A stretch of 64,000 nt of DNA from Podarcis pityusensis (Eukaryota). Positions within the stretch are counted from its first letter, which is position 1. The number at the start of each line of letters is the position of its first letter. The stretch lies in NCBI GenBank assembly GCA_964106645.2, contig OZ067040.1. One strand, given 5' to 3'. A program made the position numbers and the translations under genes. This document shows, piece after piece, positions 1-60,419 of the stretch. The notes under the pieces are model-generated. The model was not told the origin of the DNA. It ran no database searches and was given only the letters and a program-made list of their open reading frames with translations.

Positions 1-91
1 GTTGTTCCAGCGAATCGTTTATTTTCAATAATGCAGCCACTAAGGCCTCCTCTGTCGACATCCCGTCTGTTTTTTCCTTCCCGTTTGCCAT
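1..91 (-). CDS. Probable N-terminus of ORF1 of the L1-like element (partial)
   Basis: ATG at 91-89 is open to the window edge: MANGKEKTDGMSTEEALVAALLKINDSLEQ. It follows a ~940-bp 5'UTR. Confidence 0.45.
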   Translation of the reverse strand, partial: MANGKEKTDGMSTEEALVAALLKINDSLEQ

Positions 92-1030
92 AACACTTTA
101 GAGATTCAAGGTCAATTCCAAAGTCTCACACTTTTTTATCTTGCAGCTGGAAATTCCCCTAGCCCAGCTCCTATAAAGTAACCAATTTCAAAAGCTTCCA
201 CTAGGGGAAAACAGGTTGTATTTGTATCGGTCAGTATGTCCTCTTTTAAACACAGTTTCAATAATCCAAAGTTAGTTTCAATTTTCAGTTACTTTCCTCC
301 TTTTTTAAAAACAACCGGAGACAGTAGAAACAATGTATTCTCTTGATTAGCTACCTGTCAATGAACGTTCTAAACACTGTCAATGGACGTTCCAAAAAAC
401 ATCAATCCTGCTAGCAGCCCGTTTCCAGGGTCAGAGCGGCGGTATTTTAACTCTCTTAACTCTCTCCTACAGGCATATTCAGTCCACCACTTCCCCCCCT
501 TTTCTCCTGCCTCCAAAAAGGGGGGATTTAGTTCTTTACCGATGGAAATTTAGTCCTTTACAAAAGGCTTTCCAAGACTTTAGCTTGCAGTCTCCTTGCT
601 TCAATTAATCTACAAAAGAGGGAGGCGGACTTCCTGTATTGAACCTCCCCGTTTTGATGCCAGATTAAACATTTAAAAATCCAATTCTTCCCAATTCAGC
701 TCTACTCACGGGTAATTACTTTAGAGTCAAATTGTCCACAGGAAAGAGTCAGTGCTCTCCGACAACAGCTATGCGGCTTCGCTCCGTGGAAGAAGCAGAC
801 GATTCGAAGCACTGCGCCACTCACCCCACATCGCTCCGGATCCCCGAAACCGGGTTTCCCCGCGAGTAGGGGAGGCGCAAAAGGTGCCTGCCGAATCCCA
901 CGTTCACAGGCTTCTCCCGCCTGTGATTTTTACGGGTCTCCGCCTTCGCTGTGAGACCCAAAGTCCCACGGGGCAAATTCCTCCCGATCAGAGGAATTCC
1001 GCCATTGCCGGAGGCACCAACCCGGAAGTC
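1..1030 (-). mobile_element. 5' end (long 5'UTR plus start of ORF) of an L1-clade retroelement running off the left edge
   Basis: About 195-1030 is colinear and similar to 3310-4177 of the TSD-flanked element. Both begin GACTTCCGG on the minus strand. CpG-rich 5' end. Confidence 0.75.
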
Positions 1031-1978
1031 TCTGCACAATACTAATCTCACTGCCCTCCAGCTAATTAATAATAATAGCAAAATTGGTGGGATATCAAAA
1101 ATAGCCCATAGTGACTGTATTCCATTATTCTGGAGAACACACATGCCAATTTTGACCTAAGTCTAAATTAAAAGCAGAGATATCAGTCTTGGAGTAGCCA
1201 ATCTTCTACATAATATAGCTGAAAGATGCACAAATTCAGCCCAGTAGAGATTCTGGATCATGTCATTTTTAGATAACTGGATACATATTCAACTTTCATT
1301 GTTTGTGAGAAGAAAGAGTGATGGCTTTGGTCCAAATATTGTCATGCGCTACAGGCTGCCATGTGCAACAATTGGCCCAAGAGAATGCATAGTGGATAAT
1401 TACAACTGAGAGAGGAATGATTTCTAAGCTTTGGCAGCTTCCAATTGGCTGCAGGAGCTTTCTGCGGCCAATCAGAAGCCGCGCTTTGGTTTCCAAACTT
1501 TCTGGAAGTCGAAACGGATTCCGTTCAACTTCCAATATACAACTGTACCTTTAATAAGGTACATGCTTTATAGCAGTTCGTGAAATAAAGGCTATATGTT
1601 TGAATATCATAAATATTTAAAAGCTTCCTGTGAAGTGATTTAAGACTTACTGTCTCAAGAAATAAGTGTTGTTGTCAGTTAATTCTCTCTCTCTCTAACA
1701 CACATACATATACAAGCATTTATAGAAAACTATTGTCCAAATTACCTTACTGATCCAATAAGAGTGCAATATGTGAAAGAAAATGCTGGGATTTGCACTG
1801 GGATGACAGAGACAGTTTCTAATCTCTGCTTTGCCATGGAATTCACTAAGGACAGGCACATTAATGTATTTCATTTGATTTTCACTCCATAGGATTCATG
1901 TGCAATTTGTAGCATTTATGCAGTAACACTGTCAACTGCATTGTTTTTGAGGTGAGTGAGGTTCTGCCTACTGTTCTT

Positions 1979-4177
1979 TTTTTTTTAATGATATTTATTA
2001 AGAGTTTTAAAGTTACAGAAAAAACAGAGAAGAAAAAGAAAGAGAAAAAACAAAAGAAAGACAAACCACAATCCAGCAATACAAATTGATAAAAATCAAA
2101 ATCAAAAAATAAGAACAAAGCACGTAACAGAACAGAATCAAAAAACAAAAATAAGCCACAAAAATTTAAAAACAAATCCAATATTCTCATATCCTTGACT
2201 GTCATTACCTTCTTTTTTTGACCTCCTCACTCCTCCCTTTTTTTTGTATCCTAGTTATTAATAGTCACAGCAAATCCTTTCCATTTTTCATAATATTCTG
2301 TCATTACATTACCTTAATCTGTTTTAACCTTATCTTACTATAAAAGACCTTAAGACTTAAAACTTAGATCTTATTTACACCAATTTCTCATAACCATAAC
2401 ATATTCTTACATAATTCTTTTAACATTTTTGCTAAAGCCAAATAATTTCGTTCCAACATTTTTCTAACATTCATCAATTTTATAAAACAATCCTAATAAA
2501 AAAAATTTCTTCCAATCTTCATCCAGCGTCTCTTCCTCCTGGTCCCGGGTTTTGTCAGTCCTTTCTATCCCATCAATCTAGTTCATTAACCTGGTAATCT
2601 TATGTCCAAGGCCCTTAAATCTCTTCCATGTCCCTTCCGCAGCTCTTCTTCATATTTATACCTGTACTTTACTTTATCTCCTGCTCCTTTCACTCGTGGA
2701 AACTCCAACTTAACAGTGTTTTTGACCCTTCTCGACAAATCAGCCCCTTTTCCATAGTCCACACTAGACTCCATGTGGTATTTAAAAACATGTTTCAAGA
2801 TCCCTCCAGAATTAAGAGCCCCCACAACCCCAAACATCTCACGGCCCATTGCCAGACTTGGAGAGTCAAAACATCCCTGCATGGGGGGGGGGTCTATCCA
2901 ACCCCCCATTTCCAAACCAAACAAAACTCTATCTCTCCAAGCCTGGCTTTTTCCAAGTTCATTTGTCAAATCCAACAACTCATGTTCCTGCTGGGCCACA
3001 GCTCCCTCCATCTCTGGCGCCCGAGGTTCAACAACATCCTCTTCCCTCATCTGATCTGTCAGAGCACACTCCTGATTTAATTCCTGGATGGGCTCTATAT
3101 AGTTACCCACTACCTGTCCGAAATTTCCATTCGCTGCAGTCATCAAGTCCGTCTTCTCATGTAGCTGTTCCAGTAGGGCACTTGTTTTGCAGAAGACACA
3201 CATCAGAGCTTCTGAATACATTGTTCTGCAAGGTCAGATGACTATTCCCACGATCGTAATCTGCTGCAGCTGCAGAGCTTCCCGATTCAGATTTAGTAAC
3301 AGTTTCACAGGCTCCCTCTAGGGGAAGAACTTCTATTTGTTCTTTTCTTTTAAAAGCAGATCTAACAACAAAGTTTCCTTTTTCAGATATTTTGTCAATA
3401 TTTGTTCCTTTAAAATGCGAAGGAGAACAATGGAATCACTATGTTTCTCTTCTTTTAACTATCTGTCAAAAACGTTTGTCTCTGGTCAATGAGCTTCCCA
3501 AAGAACGTCAGTCCTGACACCCGCTCCCAGGATCAAGACGGTGGAAAATTACTTTGCTTTACACTCTTTCTGCAGGTTTAAACAGTCCGGGGAAAAAATC
3601 CCCCCTCTTCTCCTGCTTCCGAAGGGGGTTCAACAATTTTAAATGATGAAAGTTAATCCTTTACAAGCGATTTTCTGAACTCTAGTTTGCCATGTCTTTG
3701 CTTTAATCTATCTACAAGAAACAGAAGGCTGACTTCCTGTTTAGACCTTCCCGTTTCAGTGCCAAATTGAGATGAATTTCTTAGTCCAATTTTCCTTTCT
3801 ACTCGCAGGTCATTATTCAAAGTCCAATTGTCCGAAATTAAAGTACTCACGGGTAATTGTTTTAAAAGCCAAATTGTCCCAGGAAAAAGGCAGTGCTCTC
3901 CGGCAACGGCTGTGTGGCTTCGCTCCATGGAAGAAGCAGTTGACTCTCAGCACCGTGCCACTTCCCCCTCTTCGCTCCGGAGCCCGTGAATGGGTTCCTT
4001 ACTGGGTTGGGGGGGCGCTAAAGGTGCCCGCCGAGTCCCATGGTCACAGGCTTCATCCGCCTGTGATTTTTGAAAGGGTCCCCGCTTCGCCGTAGTGGGA
4101 AAGACCCGTTTTCCGTGGAGCTGGTCCCTCCAGATCAGAGGGAGTCCGCCATTACCGCTGGCGCCACCCCGGAAGTC
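1979..4177 (-). mobile_element. Complete 2.2-kb non-autonomous L1-derived retroelement (HAL1-like)
   Basis: TSD TGCCTACTGTTCTT at 1965-1978 and 4178-4191; poly(A) tail at 1979-1986; AATAAA at 1999-1994; L1-type 5'UTR; ORF2 C-terminal vestige at 2464-2577; no EN/RT. Confidence 0.85.
2586..3221 (-). CDS. 211-aa ORF of the 2.2-kb element, possibly a diverged L1 ORF1p derivative
   Basis: Uninterrupted ORF in the element's sense orientation, between the 5'UTR and the ORF2 vestige. Acidic, heptad-like N-half and basic C-half. Confidence 0.55.
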   Translation of the reverse strand: MYSEALMCVFCKTSALLEQLHEKTDLMTAANGNFGQVVGNYIEPIQELNQECALTDQMREEDVVEPRAPEMEGAVAQQEHELLDLTNELGKSQAWRDRVLFGLEMGGWIDPPPMQGCFDSPSLAMGREMFGVVGALNSGGILKHVFKYHMESSVDYGKGADLSRRVKNTVKLEFPRVKGAGDKVKYRYKYEEELRKGHGRDLRALDIRLPG

Positions 4178-4237
4178 TGCCTACTGTTCTTGGATCTCTC
4201 ATGGCTAAGTCACACATTTAGCTGGATGTTGCAGTTA

Positions 4238-4723
4238 CAGTGGTACCTCGGTTTTCGAATGCACAGTGGTACCTTGGGTTAAGAACTTAATTCGTTCTGG
4301 AGGTCCGTTCTTAACCTGAAACTGTTCTTAACCTGAGGTACCACTTTAGCTAATGGGGCCTCCCGCTGCCACCAGGCCGCCACCGCACAATTTCTGTTCT
4401 CATCCTGAAGAAAAGTTCTTAACCTGAGGTACTATTTCTGGGTTAGCGGAGTCTGTAACCTGAAGCATCTATAACTTGAAGCATCTGTAACCCAAGGTAC
4501 CACTGTAATCCTTTCCGGAAGACCGTTCAAGTTCTGAAACGTTTGAAAACTGAAAACTCAACAGCCGACACTTAGGCCTCAGGATCTTGCACTCAACAGA
4601 AGCTGCGTGCCATGTTTGACTTCTGAGGCGTGTTTGAAAACCACAGTATTTACTTCCGGGTTTACAGCGTTCGAAAACTGAAATGTTCGTCAACGGTGAC
4701 ATTCAAAAACCGAGGTACCACTG
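4238..4723. mobile_element. Tc1/mariner-type MITE (outer element of a nest)
   Basis: TIR CAGTGGTACCTCGGTTTT...AAAACCGAGGTACCACTG with TA on both flanks. Confidence 0.85.
4264..4505. mobile_element. Tc1/mariner-type MITE nested in the previous one
   Basis: TIR CAGTGGTACCTTGGGTTA...TAACCCAAGGTACCACTG. A sister copy lies at 42762-42973. Confidence 0.85.
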
Positions 4724-21114: not shown

Positions 21115-22280
21115 ACCCAATATGGAGGCTAAATGGCCAAAATATTGGGAAATACTAGAAAAAGATGGAGACAACTGGAAATTGCAGAGTTTGGAGAAAA
21201 TGAAGGATAAAGTGCGAGACTGGTTACATTACGCTCAGATTAAAGAAGTCTTTAAAAATGACAAGAAACTAGGGTTCCAGGTGGAGAAATCGAAACTAGA
21301 AACAGAACTGTTAGAACCAAAGTCTAAGGTACTTTCAAGGATGTATAACTTGCTGTTAAAATGGAATACACAAGATGAAATGGTTAAATCGGCTATGATA
21401 AGGTGGGCGCAGGACATTGGGTACAATATCATGTTTGAGGACTGGGAAAGGTTGTGGAGTACTGGGTTGAACTTTACTGCATGCAATGCTTTGAAAGAAA
21501 ATGTAATGAAAATGATATATAGATGGTATATGACCCCAGTCAAACTTGCAAAAATATACCACCTGCCTGATAATAAGTGTTGGAAATGTAAAGAGAGTGA
21601 AGGAACATTCTTCCACCTCTGGTGGACCTGCCCTAAAGTGAAGGCGTTCTGGGAAATGATTTATAATGAACTGAAAAAGGTATTTAAGTATACCTTCACA
21701 AAGAAACCAGAGGCCTTTCTTTTGGGTATTGTCGGCCAAGGGGTGGTAAAGAAGGACTGGACATTCTTTATGTATGCAACAACAGCAGCAAGGATACTAC
21801 TTGCAAAGCACTGGAAAGCTCAAGATCTACCCACACTGGAAGAATGGCAGATGCAACTGATAGACTATATGGAACTGGCCGAGATGACCGGCAGAATTCG
21901 TGACCTGGGAGAAGAGAAGATGGAGGAGGACTGGAAGAAATTTAAGAACTATTTACAAAAACATTGTAACTTGAGTGAATGTTAAGCAGGATGCTAGATC
22001 ATAAATAATTGAGCACCACTAAATTAGATGATTTAAGATAATAAGTGAGATTGAGAAAATATAAACCTTTTTGAGAATTATAAGATTATAAATATACAGA
22101 TGGGACATAAGAATGCAAATAAGATAATAAATTGCTGGCAAAAAGTTACAACGATGAAAGTGGGAGCGGGAGATGTGAGGAAGTCCAAAGAAAATGTGAA
22201 ATTATGTTAAGATATATGTTATACTGTTTATTATATTTATTTTTATTGTAAACCCCAATAAATATTTAAAAAAAAAAAAA
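21115..22280 (+). mobile_element. 5'-truncated young L1 (LINE-1 clade) in LCLAT1 intron 1
   Basis: Perfect 15-bp TSD GAGAAGTTGAATCTG at 21100-21114 and 22281-22295; AATAAA at 22257-22262; poly(A) to 22280. Confidence 0.95.
21122..21985 (+). pseudogene. C-terminal 287 aa of L1 ORF2p (cysteine-rich zinc-knuckle region)
   Basis: CWKC-x8-HLWWTC CCHC motif, followed by TAARILLAKHWK, typical of vertebrate L1 ORF2 C-termini. Confidence 0.9.
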
Positions 22281-42640: not shown

Positions 42641-42761
42641 CATTTATTATGATTATTTTATCATATTGTTATGCTTTTTATTATGTTTTCACTATTGACG
42701 TTCTGTAAAACGTTTTCTTAATGCTGTACACCACCCTCGGATCTTTTGATAAAAGATAGTA

Positions 42762-42973
42762 CAGTGGTACTTCGGGTTAAGTACTTAATTCATTCCGGAG
42801 GTCCGTTCTTAACCTGAAACTGTTCTTTACCTGAGGTACCACTTTAGCTAATGGGGCCTCCCACCGCCGCACAATTTCTGTTCTCATCCTGAAGCAAAGT
42901 TCTGAACCCAAGGTATTATTTCTGGGTTAGTGGAGTCTGTAACCTGAAGCGTATGTAACCCAAGGTACCACTG
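42762..42973. mobile_element. Tc1/mariner-type MITE
   Basis: TA-flanked TIRs; sister of 4264-4505. Confidence 0.85.
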
Positions 42974-45496
42974 TATATAAATTGAAATGATGATGATGGA
43001 AGTGCAAGGCCCCTTGCATCCAGGAGGAGGACTCCTGCCAAGTTTAGTTTCAGCTTCAGAGAATCTTGGCTTTGCATTACTTGTGAACCAGTAATTCTGG
43101 CTTAAAGCAAACAGTGGTTAGTTTCTAAAACAAGCAGACCTCAAACCATGGGTTAGCTGGCATGTTTTAACTGCTGATTGTGTTTGCACATGATGCTAAG
43201 CCATCATGCTTTGACATTTAAAGTAAACTTGGCAGAGGAGGGCAAGGAAAGTAACATGTGAGCCTGATGCTTTGTTGAGACTTGTCTCCGTAATGCTGAA
43301 CCATGATTTAGTGTTACAGGCAAACAAGCCCAGCAGCTGCATACACCTCCTGCCCAATGTGCATGGACAATAAGCTTGTGCATTTCTACCTCCAGTGCAG
43401 CTGAGAAGAGGATATCAGAAACTTCTGCTTCCATCTTCCATTTTCAACTATCCATATGTTCTTGTTATGGCTGAATCTGGACAAACTGTACTTAGAGTTA
43501 GCTATGATTTATTGAAATAAGCAAAGTTCAAACCCTGATTATGGACCCTGATCTGATTTAGTAAATCATAGTTAGCATTGTGCACAAAAAGCTAAACCAT
43601 GGTTCAGCATTATGTGTGAACCAAGACAGTGAGTCAGTGGCAGAGGTGGAACTTCATGCTAGTCCTCCCAAATGCAAATTAGGTGGATTGGATAATATTT
43701 CCTGTATTGCTTACTAAAAATACTCTCTGGCATTCTGAATGAAAAGCTTGACAGACAGCCCTCTCCTTTATAAGCAGTATGTGTGTTTGTGTTTTGTAAA
43801 CAAGAGACTTTTTTTTCTTGTTCTGTTATTTACCAAAACTAAAAGCCACAATTTTCGAAATTCTGTGCTTGTTTGACACAGTGTATTTGTTAGATAATTC
43901 AGGCACCACTCCATTGTACTCACATCTTGATTTGCTGGAGAGAGCCAGGTTCTGCATGTTCATGCTTTACTGGAACTTGAAAATAAATGGGCTCCAATGG
44001 CTTTGCGTAATGGGTTGCTTTTCCACTGCTATTTCTCCCCACTTCCACCAAACTGAAAGCACTAGTTTCCTGCCTGTCTTGTGTGATTTCTTGCATGTAA
44101 TTTTAAAGCTGCCTTTTAGAGAGCTCTTCAGAGTAGTGAACAAGAAAAGCCTGTGCAAAGCTCCTCATCTTCTAAACAACCAATTTAATCCTAAATAATG
44201 GAAAACTGGCTATTTGCAGATTCTAATTTAGAAAATTAGTGTTTCCATATTTGTTTAATGATAACAAGGTGGCTGCTATGATGGAAAGTTTCCTAGACAA
44301 TAATAAGATACTCTTTGGTCCACATTTGGCCAGCAACATTTCTTATTGTATCTAGCACATTTAATAACAGATCTACATTATGGTTCTAACCGACAGTAGA
44401 GCTACTCTGATAGTCTTGTCATAATTTATATTATCTTAATTATATTTATAATTTTATTCTGATTATATCTTAATAGAGATTGCTGATGTATTGTATTCAT
44501 CCCAGAGTATGTTGCAATGGTGATTTGGGAATTGATGTAGCATTTTTTTCTTACAGAGGGGTCAGTTCTGCAGTAATATATTCTGCAGCAGAAGGTGAGA
44601 AAATTTTAGAGTAAACACAGACAGGGAGATATGCTCCCTTGGACACCCTCATTTGAATTCCCGTTAGGCTGAAGGCCAAACTAAATGTTATGCTAGTGCC
44701 GTACATGATTTATTCAAAAGCTGATTTGGGGGCCAGAGCTGGACCGGTACCTGGAGGGAGCAGGCTTTAACCCCTTGCCTCTGGTATGGCCTCATTTAGA
44801 ATCGCATATTCTCACTCCCACCTCAGCGTTTCATGTTCCTTTACTTTTTGAAGTAATGCTTTTATTTAATTATTTTAATTCAACAATTTATACACAGCTT
44901 AGCAGCGTAGTTTCTAAGCAGTGTACAGTGAGGTTACAAAGGAGATGCAACAGATAAAACAAGTTAAAAATTTTACCAAAAAAGCTTCCTTTTGTTCACA
45001 AAGTGCCTGTAGTTCAGGGAGGCAGGCGGCCTGTTTTGATTTCAACTGGGAAAGAGAATTAGGCTGACAATACTGAATGCACGGCTCCTGGCAGATGCAA
45101 GCTGTGCACCTGAGCCATGGGGGGACCATTACAGTTTGTGTCTGTTTCAAAACTTTTCAGGGCTCTCTTGGTGCAAAATCCACAAGATCTGTCTTTGCAA
45201 AATGGAATGAAAATCACATGCTGAGTACAAATTATAGGGTGGTGGGTTCAGTAATGGTACAAGTTATCTAGGCAGCTATATTGTGGGTTACACTGGAGGT
45301 ACTGAGTGGCTTTAAGAAACTGACCATCTCTGGCCTGAGGCTGACTTGCCAACAAACTGGTTTTCTTCTCCTCTCTCCAAAATGTATGACAGAAATTGAG
45401 TACCGTCAATTGAAAAGCATGGAGAGGAGCCAATTCAGGAAGACATCAGCATTGAAGCTGTTTCCATAAACACCTTTCTTTCTCTTTTTCAGAGCC

Positions 45497-59545: not shown

Positions 59546-59647
59546 TTACAAAATTTATGTTTGATAATTTGAGAACTTAAGTTATGGATATGCACAAGCA
59601 AGAAATTTCCAGCACAGTATTTAAAAGACTCTTCAAAATTGTTCTAG

Positions 59648-59794
59648 GCTGGGCCATGCAGGTTGCTGCCTTCATTTTTATTCATAGAAGATGGGAAGAA
59701 GACAAAAATCATTTTGAAAATATGCTGGATTACTTCTGTGACATTAACGAACCACTGCAGCTCCTCATCTTTCCCGAAGGAACAGATCTGACAG
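59648..59794 (+). CDS. LCLAT1: Lysocardiolipin acyltransferase 1, coding exon 3
   Basis: (G)WAMQVAAFIFIHRRWEEDK...PLQLLIFPEGTDLT, containing the FIxR and FPEGTD motifs. Acceptor TTCTAG, donor CAG|GTACTT, 147 nt, phase 1 to 1. Confidence 0.97.
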
Positions 59795-60419
59795 GTACTT
59801 TAATTCAATTCTCTCCCCACCAATCTTCTCAGGGTAGAAAAAATTGTGTCACAATTATTCCATTTAAAAGTTTACAATTTAAAATGCAAGTTTGACCTGC
59901 CATGTGTTCAGTGGTGTTTTATCTTGAAAAGTTATGCTTTATGAGACTTCTACAAGTGATACTAGTACCCATAGGGCAGGAGCTTGAGAGGAAATACTGC
60001 ACATATTCTGAAGTGGGTTCAAAACGGCCACAACCTTTTTTTGATGTGGCATAGGGCACAGATCAACTGCGGATCATCCTTACTGCTATTTGATAGTACA
60101 GCCACCCAGCCCACATTGATGGGAGTAGCAGAAATATGATAAATTTCTAAGGTTTGAACGGCCTGGATGTTGGATGGGTATGGCAGCCCCCAAACTCGAC
60201 TGGGTTTTGAAGTGACATCCAAAGGTTCCTTAAGTGGATTAACTGTTTTTAATAATCTTATGTGTTAGTTGCCTTGAAACAACAATCTCCCAGTGGGGAG
60301 CAGGGAATCCCACCCGTTCTTATCCCTGCTGTACATCCAGCCCAGTGCTTCCAGTGTGTCTATAATGAGACATTGGCCTGGTTTGCGTGTCACATTAAGG
60401 CCAAGCTATGGTTTAACAC

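Follow-up and report, generated by a model that had tools for sequence, protein, structure and literature searches.

For what reason half-L1 elements retain ORF1p is answered only by inference in the excerpts of the literature drawn on here: action of the protein in cis, or multimerisation with that of a helper. Mammalian HAL1 elements, as described in such excerpts, derive from L1, carry ORF1 only and depend on L1 EN/RT (PMC5753468, PMC5786205, PMC3627910, PMC5322556). A locus of the lizard Podarcis pityusensis raises the question outside mammals. Within the window (the whole 64,000-nt stretch of contig OZ067040.1 that was analysed), a complete element of 2.2 kb combines L1-like ends with a single ORF of 211 aa. 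What is this element derived from, has it spread, and what might its protein contribute?

Structure of the element

The element lies on the minus strand, and the following features were assigned to it and to its target-site duplication (TSD).

1979..4177, minus strand: whole element, 2,199 nt (TSD spacing 2213; a contig with the empty site in run X7 skips exactly 2213 nt)
4178..4191, no strand: TSD copy on the element's 5' side, 14 nt (exact repeat; boundary from the lizard clade-1 L1 5' consensus)
1965..1978, no strand: TSD copy on the poly(A) side, 14 nt, plus 2 nt of microhomology (exact repeat)
4147..4177, minus strand: L1 5' terminal motif GACTTCCGG...ATGGCG (sequence against the consensus excerpted from PMC5381506)
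3222..4177, minus strand: 5'UTR, 956 nt (similarity to the L1-type 5'UTR at window 330-1031)
2586..3221, minus strand: 211-aa ORF, a degenerate derivative of an inferred ORF1p (relatives P0001-P0005)
2910..3212, minus strand: ORF residues 4-104, homologous to residues 56-182 of P0007, an inferred ORF1p coiled coil (BLASTP, hhalign, shuffles)
2589..2909, minus strand: ORF residues 105-211, without detectable RRM/CTD, C-terminal third basic (Pfam 0 families; charge)
2464..2592, minus strand: ORF2 C-terminal vestige in another frame, with an internal stop at 2580-2578 (local alignment and DNA alignment)
1987..2463, minus strand: AT-rich 3'UTR, 27% GC, with AATAAA at 1999-1994 near its end
1979..1986, minus strand: poly(A) tail, 8 nt (8 A beyond the TSD)

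An exact direct repeat of 16 nt brackets the element (1963-1978 and 4176-4191, spacing 2213); as a control, shared repeats longer than 10 nt were found in none of 3,000 random window pairs. The first bases of the element, GACTTCCGG...ATGGCG, match the 5' consensus of lizard clade-1 L1s in the available part of PMC5381506. The 5' end is therefore placed at 4177, the dinucleotide GA is counted as part of the element, and the TSD is 14 nt long, as the original prediction had it. The spacer within the 5' motif is 16 nt in the element versus 10 nt in the anole clade-1 consensus of the same source. The remaining structural claims of the prediction were borne out as well: AATAAA (1999-1994) precedes a poly(A) tail, albeit a short one of 8 A; the 5'UTR is full, with 956 nt and a clade-1 L1-type 5' end; one open frame of 211 codons runs from 3221 to 2586; and the element's strand encodes no RT.

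Over 760 aligned columns, the 5'UTR shares 68% identity with its L1-type counterpart at window 330-1031, with which it is colinear up to the start of the ORF. Its first 300 nt are CpG-rich (62% GC, 20 CpG), it contains six upstream ATGs, and it is likely to constitute an internal promoter. The sense frames other than that of the 211-aa ORF contain 15 and 16 stops, and no longer ATG-initiated ORF occurs on the element's own strand. No EN/RT coding was found there, the vestige being the sole significant match to the ORF2 C-terminal fragment at 21 kb. Pfam searches with three frames of 2464-2912 yielded no family at cut-off, and Rfam searches of window 1-4600 gave 0 matches. An autonomous lizard clade-1 L1, with full ORF1 and ORF2 in 6.1-6.7 kb, was considered and rejected, the element being 2.2 kb long and devoid of ORF2.

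One of the six upstream ATGs opens a 91-aa ORF (window 3928-3653, minus strand) without a Pfam match. A splice-donor-like GTGAGT at window 3850, minus strand, recurs in the neighbouring 5'UTR at 709, and an acceptor-like stretch lies just before the ATG of the main ORF (window 3240-3228, minus strand). Together these suggest a possible 5'UTR intron, with a chance match being plausible; no spliced 5'UTR joint is present among the 15 of 33 joints listed in public-run contigs. On visual inspection, donor-like words also occur some 300-370 nt from the start of several 5'UTRs of anole clade-1 families in the available portion of the PMC5381506 supplement.

Neighbouring elements

The neighbouring 5'UTR belongs to a second L1-type 5' end (window 1030-1, minus strand), 68% identical in its 5'UTR and with its ORF start cut by the window edge. 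Compared with the gene model P0007 described below, 41 codons are missing in frame from this ORF start, and the neighbour may be either a deleted derivative or a natural length variant of ORF1. Window 21115-22280, plus strand, is occupied by a young L1 that is truncated at the 5' end, has poly(A) and a TSD of 15 nt, and keeps the last 289 codons of ORF2 intact. Adjoining the insertion, at window 4233-4507, is a short high-copy element with inverted repeats, which looks like a non-autonomous DNA transposon and recurs at 42761-42975. At window 59581-59892, plus strand, a host gene contributes an exon for an acyltransferase domain (PF01553) that resembles LCLAT1; it is overlapped or abutted by an L1-type RT fragment (59643-59215, minus strand).

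Copies of the element and its empty site

We searched public sequencing runs for the stretch: 20 of the 24 listed hold part of it, and 14 run rows, under six organism labels and from six studies, contain 37-56% of its words. Contigs were compared for four of the 24 runs (X1, X5, X7 and X15), on the basis of 40 of 520 variant rows, 12 of 65 indel rows, 15 of 33 joints and 24 of 1,301 loose ends. In X7, a contig of depth 62.5 joins position 1968 to 4182 and thereby skips 2213 nt, precisely the spacing of the TSD copies. It is the orthologous empty site in another organism, with a flank differing by about 7%. Contigs of X5 lead from the left flank into the T run with 0 differences and cross the 5' junction with 2; X5 is possibly the window's own source and thus not independent evidence for the presence of the element.

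Summed contig depth at the ten listed ORF rows, taken relative to the flank contig, is 278-3,989x in X5 and 85-1,982x in X7, ratios that do not equal copy number yet exclude a single copy. The junction between ORF stop and vestige is crossed by at least five among the 32 listed contig pieces (X1, X5 and X15), with 12-22 differences, and since such diverged contigs cross the same junction, other copies share the internal deletion. The copies are 99% to under 90% alike. A one-off deletion in a single L1, the outcome that would have undone the original prediction, thus fails on depth, on the shared junction and on the empty site: the element belongs to a multi-copy, non-autonomous family derived from L1. 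The runs also reveal subfamily structure, in the form of a 1-nt deletion at 2902 that is common in X1 only and of a loose end at 3051. The latter, present in X1 and X5, fits an in-frame deletion of 18 residues in P0002, a relative of the ORF product. Run X15 is RNA by guess only, which makes its contigs uninformative on transcription.

Origin of the ORF from ORF1p

Two protein searches with the ORF returned 3 of 598 candidates and 3 representatives, which comprise four Podarcis lilfordi gene models and two Logan proteins. The connection to L1 is provided by another protein, P0007, a gene model of P. raffonei retrieved with the peptide of the neighbour at 1030-1 (1 match of 2 candidates, E 4e-3). 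Residues 188-319 of P0007 are L1 ORF2p (E 3.9e-15). Residues 54-175 are modelled as one helix (pLDDT 74-89) behind a disordered N-terminus, and hydrophobic heptads are present in residues 57-112. Position, fusion to ORF2 and the long helix suggest that residues 1-187 represent the N-terminal domain and coiled coil of ORF1p, and the helix itself is very probably the ORF1p coiled coil. The last residues of this part also resemble the start of the ORF1p RRM. The searched libraries gave no direct link of the first half of P0007 to ORF1p, Foldseek included (0 hits at E 0.001).

Residues 4-104 of the ORF align with residues 56-182 of P0007 at 36% identity (BLASTP E 4e-9; hhalign probability 96.9), with a 14-residue deletion and smaller ones. 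The relative P0003 matches P0007 at E 3e-17, and all six family proteins score above all 500 shuffles against residues 1-187, compared with none of the six against the ORF2 part. The first deletions relative to P0007 are of 7 or 14 residues, that is, of whole heptads, and prolines break the coil after about residue 45 of the ORF. The family begins at the methionine that opens the coil, which indicates the loss of the N-terminal domain. The ORF had been described as an orphan, possibly a novel protein; this description does not stand, its N-terminal half being related by descent to the very probable ORF1p coiled coil in an L1 from Podarcis.

A profile search with the N-terminal part for longer proteins returned only the five relatives already known among 8,000 candidates scored, and metagenome and viral scans for relatives of the ORF gave 0 of 437 candidate stretches. 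With P0007 as query, the metagenome scan gave 2 of 82 candidates, the distant RT-type loci L001 and L002, and the viral-contig scan 0 of 3. The Podarcis 'hypothetical proteins' P0001, P0003, P0005, P0006 and P0007 appear to be family copies or spliced L1 models and not host genes.

In the C-terminal half, the 107 residues following the coil contain no recognisable RNA-binding domain. Pfam searches with the ORF and its relatives gave no family at cut-off, a PDB profile search gave 0 matches at E 10, and in the ESM Atlas the best feature score was 0.83, with recognition too low for use. The absence of RRM and CTD is judged here from Pfam and PDB profiles and not from a full lizard ORF1p, and residues 105-211 may hold a highly diverged remnant of these domains. 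AlphaFold2 models the ORF product as helices only, with no confident fold (mean pLDDT 36). At 636 nt, the ORF compares with about 1,066 nt for lizard clade-1 ORF1 in the excerpts of PMC5381506. Judged by homology and domain searches, it would be a derivative of ORF1p in which the N-terminal domain is gone, the coil shortened and RRM and CTD undetected. The protein may bind RNA itself, since its C-terminal third is basic.

The ORF2 vestige and its junction with the ORF

The ORF at 21116-21985 in the young L1 encodes L1 ORF2p (E 2.8e-12 to human ORF2p), and its end aligns with the vestige at a local score of 68, reached by none of 300 shuffles. The aligned part of the vestige spans 2592-2503 and overlaps the stop codon of the 211-aa ORF. 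The match to the end of ORF2 claimed originally is therefore significant, whereas its boundary has to be moved from 2577 slightly upstream to 2592. About 40 codons of the ORF2 end are kept, with an internal stop. Frameshifted ORF2 as a source of the ORF body was rejected: no frame beat shuffles against the last 289 aa of the ORF2 at 21 kb, nor against the ORF2 part of P0007.

At window 2588-2584, minus strand, the sequence TAATG overlaps the ORF stop with an ATG in the vestige frame, followed by a stop two codons on. Overlapping ORF1 and ORF2 are reported for five of nine anole clade-1 families in the excerpts of PMC5381506. The overlap may be the parental junction of ORF1 and ORF2, in which case the conserved C-terminal peptide of the family would be the parental ORF1 end.

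Conservation of the reading frame

Relatives P0003 and P0005 share with the window ORF 44-47% identity, a common start, stop and frame, and 8-9 internal indels, all in frame, a count biased by searches that return open frames only and by the gene models P0001, P0003, P0005 and P0007, which may be spliced. Comparison of the two protein lineages shows uneven conservation, with identities of 0.55 for residues 1-20, 0.30-0.34 for residues 121-180 and 0.92 for the last 11 residues; the middle of the protein, at about 30% identity, accommodates indels of 18-34 residues. The frame of P0002, which derives from a Logan contig of 1 kb, stays open despite 4 indels. P0004 is 174 aa long and lacks the conserved C-terminus, and P0006 is read in mixed frames. 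Ten ORF variants listed among the 40 variant rows of 520 comprise seven nonsynonymous and three synonymous changes, close to neutral. The frame-shifting 1-nt deletion in the G6 run at 2902 reaches 53% of depth in X1, on 28 contigs, falls to 0.7% in X5 and is missing from X7 and X15; it is either a homopolymer error or a subfamily that has spread with a broken frame. The better conservation of the N-terminal helix and the deletion of whole heptads fit a constraint on protein shape. From these comparisons, the open frame has probably been maintained by selection in the source copies.

The signs of decay among these observations bear on a rather improbable alternative, in which the ORF is a decaying passenger: promoter, 3' end and poly(A) would suffice for the family to spread, as in a bipartite LINE without an ORF, and open frames would persist through chance and search bias. 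The frequent frameshift in X1, the near-neutral variants, the truncated P0004 and mixed-frame P0006, and a yield of only six relatives from two protein libraries all agree with it. It accounts poorly for lineages less than half identical that keep start, stop and frame across 8-9 indels, for the openness of P0002 through four, and for a frameshift that reaches at most 0.7% of depth in X5, X7 and X15. It is scarcely credible that a current full-length L1 gave rise to the copies through repeated insertion of a spliced or deleted transcript, with no self-propagating lineage behind them. Same-junction copies do arise in humans as SpIREs, dead ends of this kind (PMC5860796, in excerpt), but the ORF is 30-44% identical to the one L1 model found (P0007), from which several deletions and prolines separate it, the copies diverge from 99% to under 90%, and no well-supported continuation from the ORF into a longer L1 appears among the 24 of 1,301 loose ends listed.

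Two further alternatives accept the family and its open frame and differ in what the frame is for. Selection might act on translation itself, with a frame open as far as the 3' part keeping a stable RNA on ribosomes where ORF2p is captured, and not on the function of the protein. The long indels and low identity of the middle region and the lack of a confident fold speak for this, and the conservation of the last 11 residues, which abut the ORF2 vestige, could be due to a nucleotide-level signal or to 3' exchange between subfamilies. The conservation of the N-terminal helix above that of the middle, together with the initial deletions of whole heptads, speaks against it, and we consider it unlikely. 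The protein might instead be a dominant-negative inhibitor, of the kind named in the original prediction, that poisons helper ORF1p oligomers, lowers L1 copying and frees ORF2p for the parasite. Human ORF1p reduced to N-terminus and coiled coil suppresses L1 in trans to 4% of control, according to the excerpts of PMC5605252; the human coiled coil without the N-terminus, however, neither suppressed L1 nor heterodimerised with ORF1p, and the window protein likewise has no N-terminal domain. The young L1 3' end in the window, intact and with a 15-nt TSD, indicates moreover that L1 stayed active, and inhibition is very improbable.

A possible mechanism of mobilisation

The chances are evenly balanced that the element is an internally deleted L1 derivative which borrows ORF2p and for which its own reduced protein, descended from ORF1p, serves as an adaptor in cis. 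Under such a mechanism, the CpG-rich L1 5'UTR would drive transcription of a polyadenylated RNA, and an intact lizard L1 ORF2p acting in trans would copy this RNA by TPRT, as suggested by the TSD, the poly(A) and the absence of RT; these steps, jointly with the identity of the coil, are held with high confidence. The young 5'-truncated L1 elsewhere in the window, with its TSD of 15 nt, shows that a helper type has been active, and the excerpts of PMC5322556 predict lizard L1 to be relaxed. The retained N-terminal helix would then join helper ORF1p, and the helper would supply RNA binding, so that the element's own RNA is drawn into the helper's particle. This pair of steps falls a little short of an even chance. 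Proteins of HAL1, HeT-A and Ag-Sponge are proposed, in the excerpts of PMC5786205, to act in cis or to multimerise with those of the helper; the failure of the human coil to heterodimerise without the N-terminus (PMC5605252, in excerpt) weakens the adaptor reading, as the window protein shares this lack. 'RNP parasite', the other role named originally, would be the best reading of the protein.

A more far-reaching version of the adaptor is doubtful. The ORF product might be a docking protein remodelled under selection, with an N-terminal helix for entry into the ORF1p oligomers of the helper and a conserved C-terminal peptide for capture of ORF2p or of the element's own RNA, so that L1 cis-preference is defeated. 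The family would, on the same doubtful footing, be a long-lived, high-copy, protein-coding L1 parasite of lacertid lizards that has shed its RNA-binding domains. If true, this would amount to a natural dissection of the part of ORF1p that a parasite needs and to the first squamate half-L1.

With only the beginning of the coil retained, across two protein lineages of 45% identity and many copies, the family sets oligomerisation apart from RNA binding, and the reason for keeping ORF1p could be probed by dN/dS and by trans-mobilisation assays. The family would also extend HAL1-type elements beyond mammals, and a high-copy L1-dependent family would join a group whose anole L1 families are described as low-copy in the excerpts of PMC5381506. 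Presence or absence of its insertions would be informative for lacertid phylogeny, and several 'hypothetical proteins' annotated in Podarcis would be explained as repeat-derived.

Comparison with known elements

No squamate HAL1 was found in the literature searched, a body of text that excludes subscription journals and in whose excerpts HAL1 is ascribed to mammals or to no host; a search on internal deletion and ORF1 in squamates gave 0. A 'podarcis' Repbase library exists according to the available part of PMC10214862, which means that the family may already have an entry there under a different name.

Several systems share single traits with the element. HeT-A and Ag-Sponge (PMC5786205, in excerpt) are bipartite non-autonomous LINEs with a single ORF1-derived protein proposed to multimerise with that of a helper, but they derive from the Jockey and CR1 clades and not from L1. 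Truncated ORF1p (PMC5605252) and SpIREs (PMC5860796), again as excerpted, are coil-only or deleted ORF1p products of defective L1s; they are by-products of single loci or dead ends, whereas the window element represents a diverged and amplified family. Lyosin (PMC12129022, in excerpt) is likewise a partial ORF1p open in reptiles, with a coiled-coil N-terminus conserved in lizards. It is a single host exon, domesticated in sauropsids and retaining the RRM; the family described here is mobile and has TSDs and an empty site.

The closest autonomous relatives are the lizard clade-1 L1s, which, in the excerpts of PMC5381506, resemble the element in the 5' motif, in 5'UTR length (956 nt, range 792-1,465), in a GC content of 46%, in the coiled-coil homology of ORF1, in the ORF2 C-terminus and in a 3'UTR length within range. 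The element is about 4 kb shorter and has no EN/RT, and coiled coil, RRM and CTD are present in all L1 families examined in that source. Mammalian HAL1 shares with the element one ORF derived from ORF1, the lack of ORF2, poly(A), TSDs and multiple copies, and the coding capacity of guinea pig HAL1 is reported, in the excerpts at hand, to have been kept for long. By the same traits, the 5' motif, the shared 5'UTR and the ORF2 vestige attest the descent of both ends of the element from L1; ORF2 is absent; poly(A), TSD and the empty site (one X7 contig) attest insertion; the copies share a junction; and the ORF is connected to ORF1 by its homology to residues 1-187 of P0007, which very probably represent ORF1p. 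A complete ORF1p with coiled coil, RRM and CTD was not found. The original prediction of a lizard HAL1-like element thus holds in that the family is L1-derived, non-autonomous and multi-copy, and fails in that the protein is not a canonical HAL1 ORF1p, its N-terminal domain being lost and RRM and CTD undetected. Unlike mammalian HAL1, the element resides in a squamate host, has an independent origin from lizard clade-1 L1, encodes a shortened coil with no N-terminal domain and no detectable RRM/CTD, and keeps about 40 codons of the ORF2 end. On these features it would be best classed as a HAL1-like variant and not as a member of HAL1.
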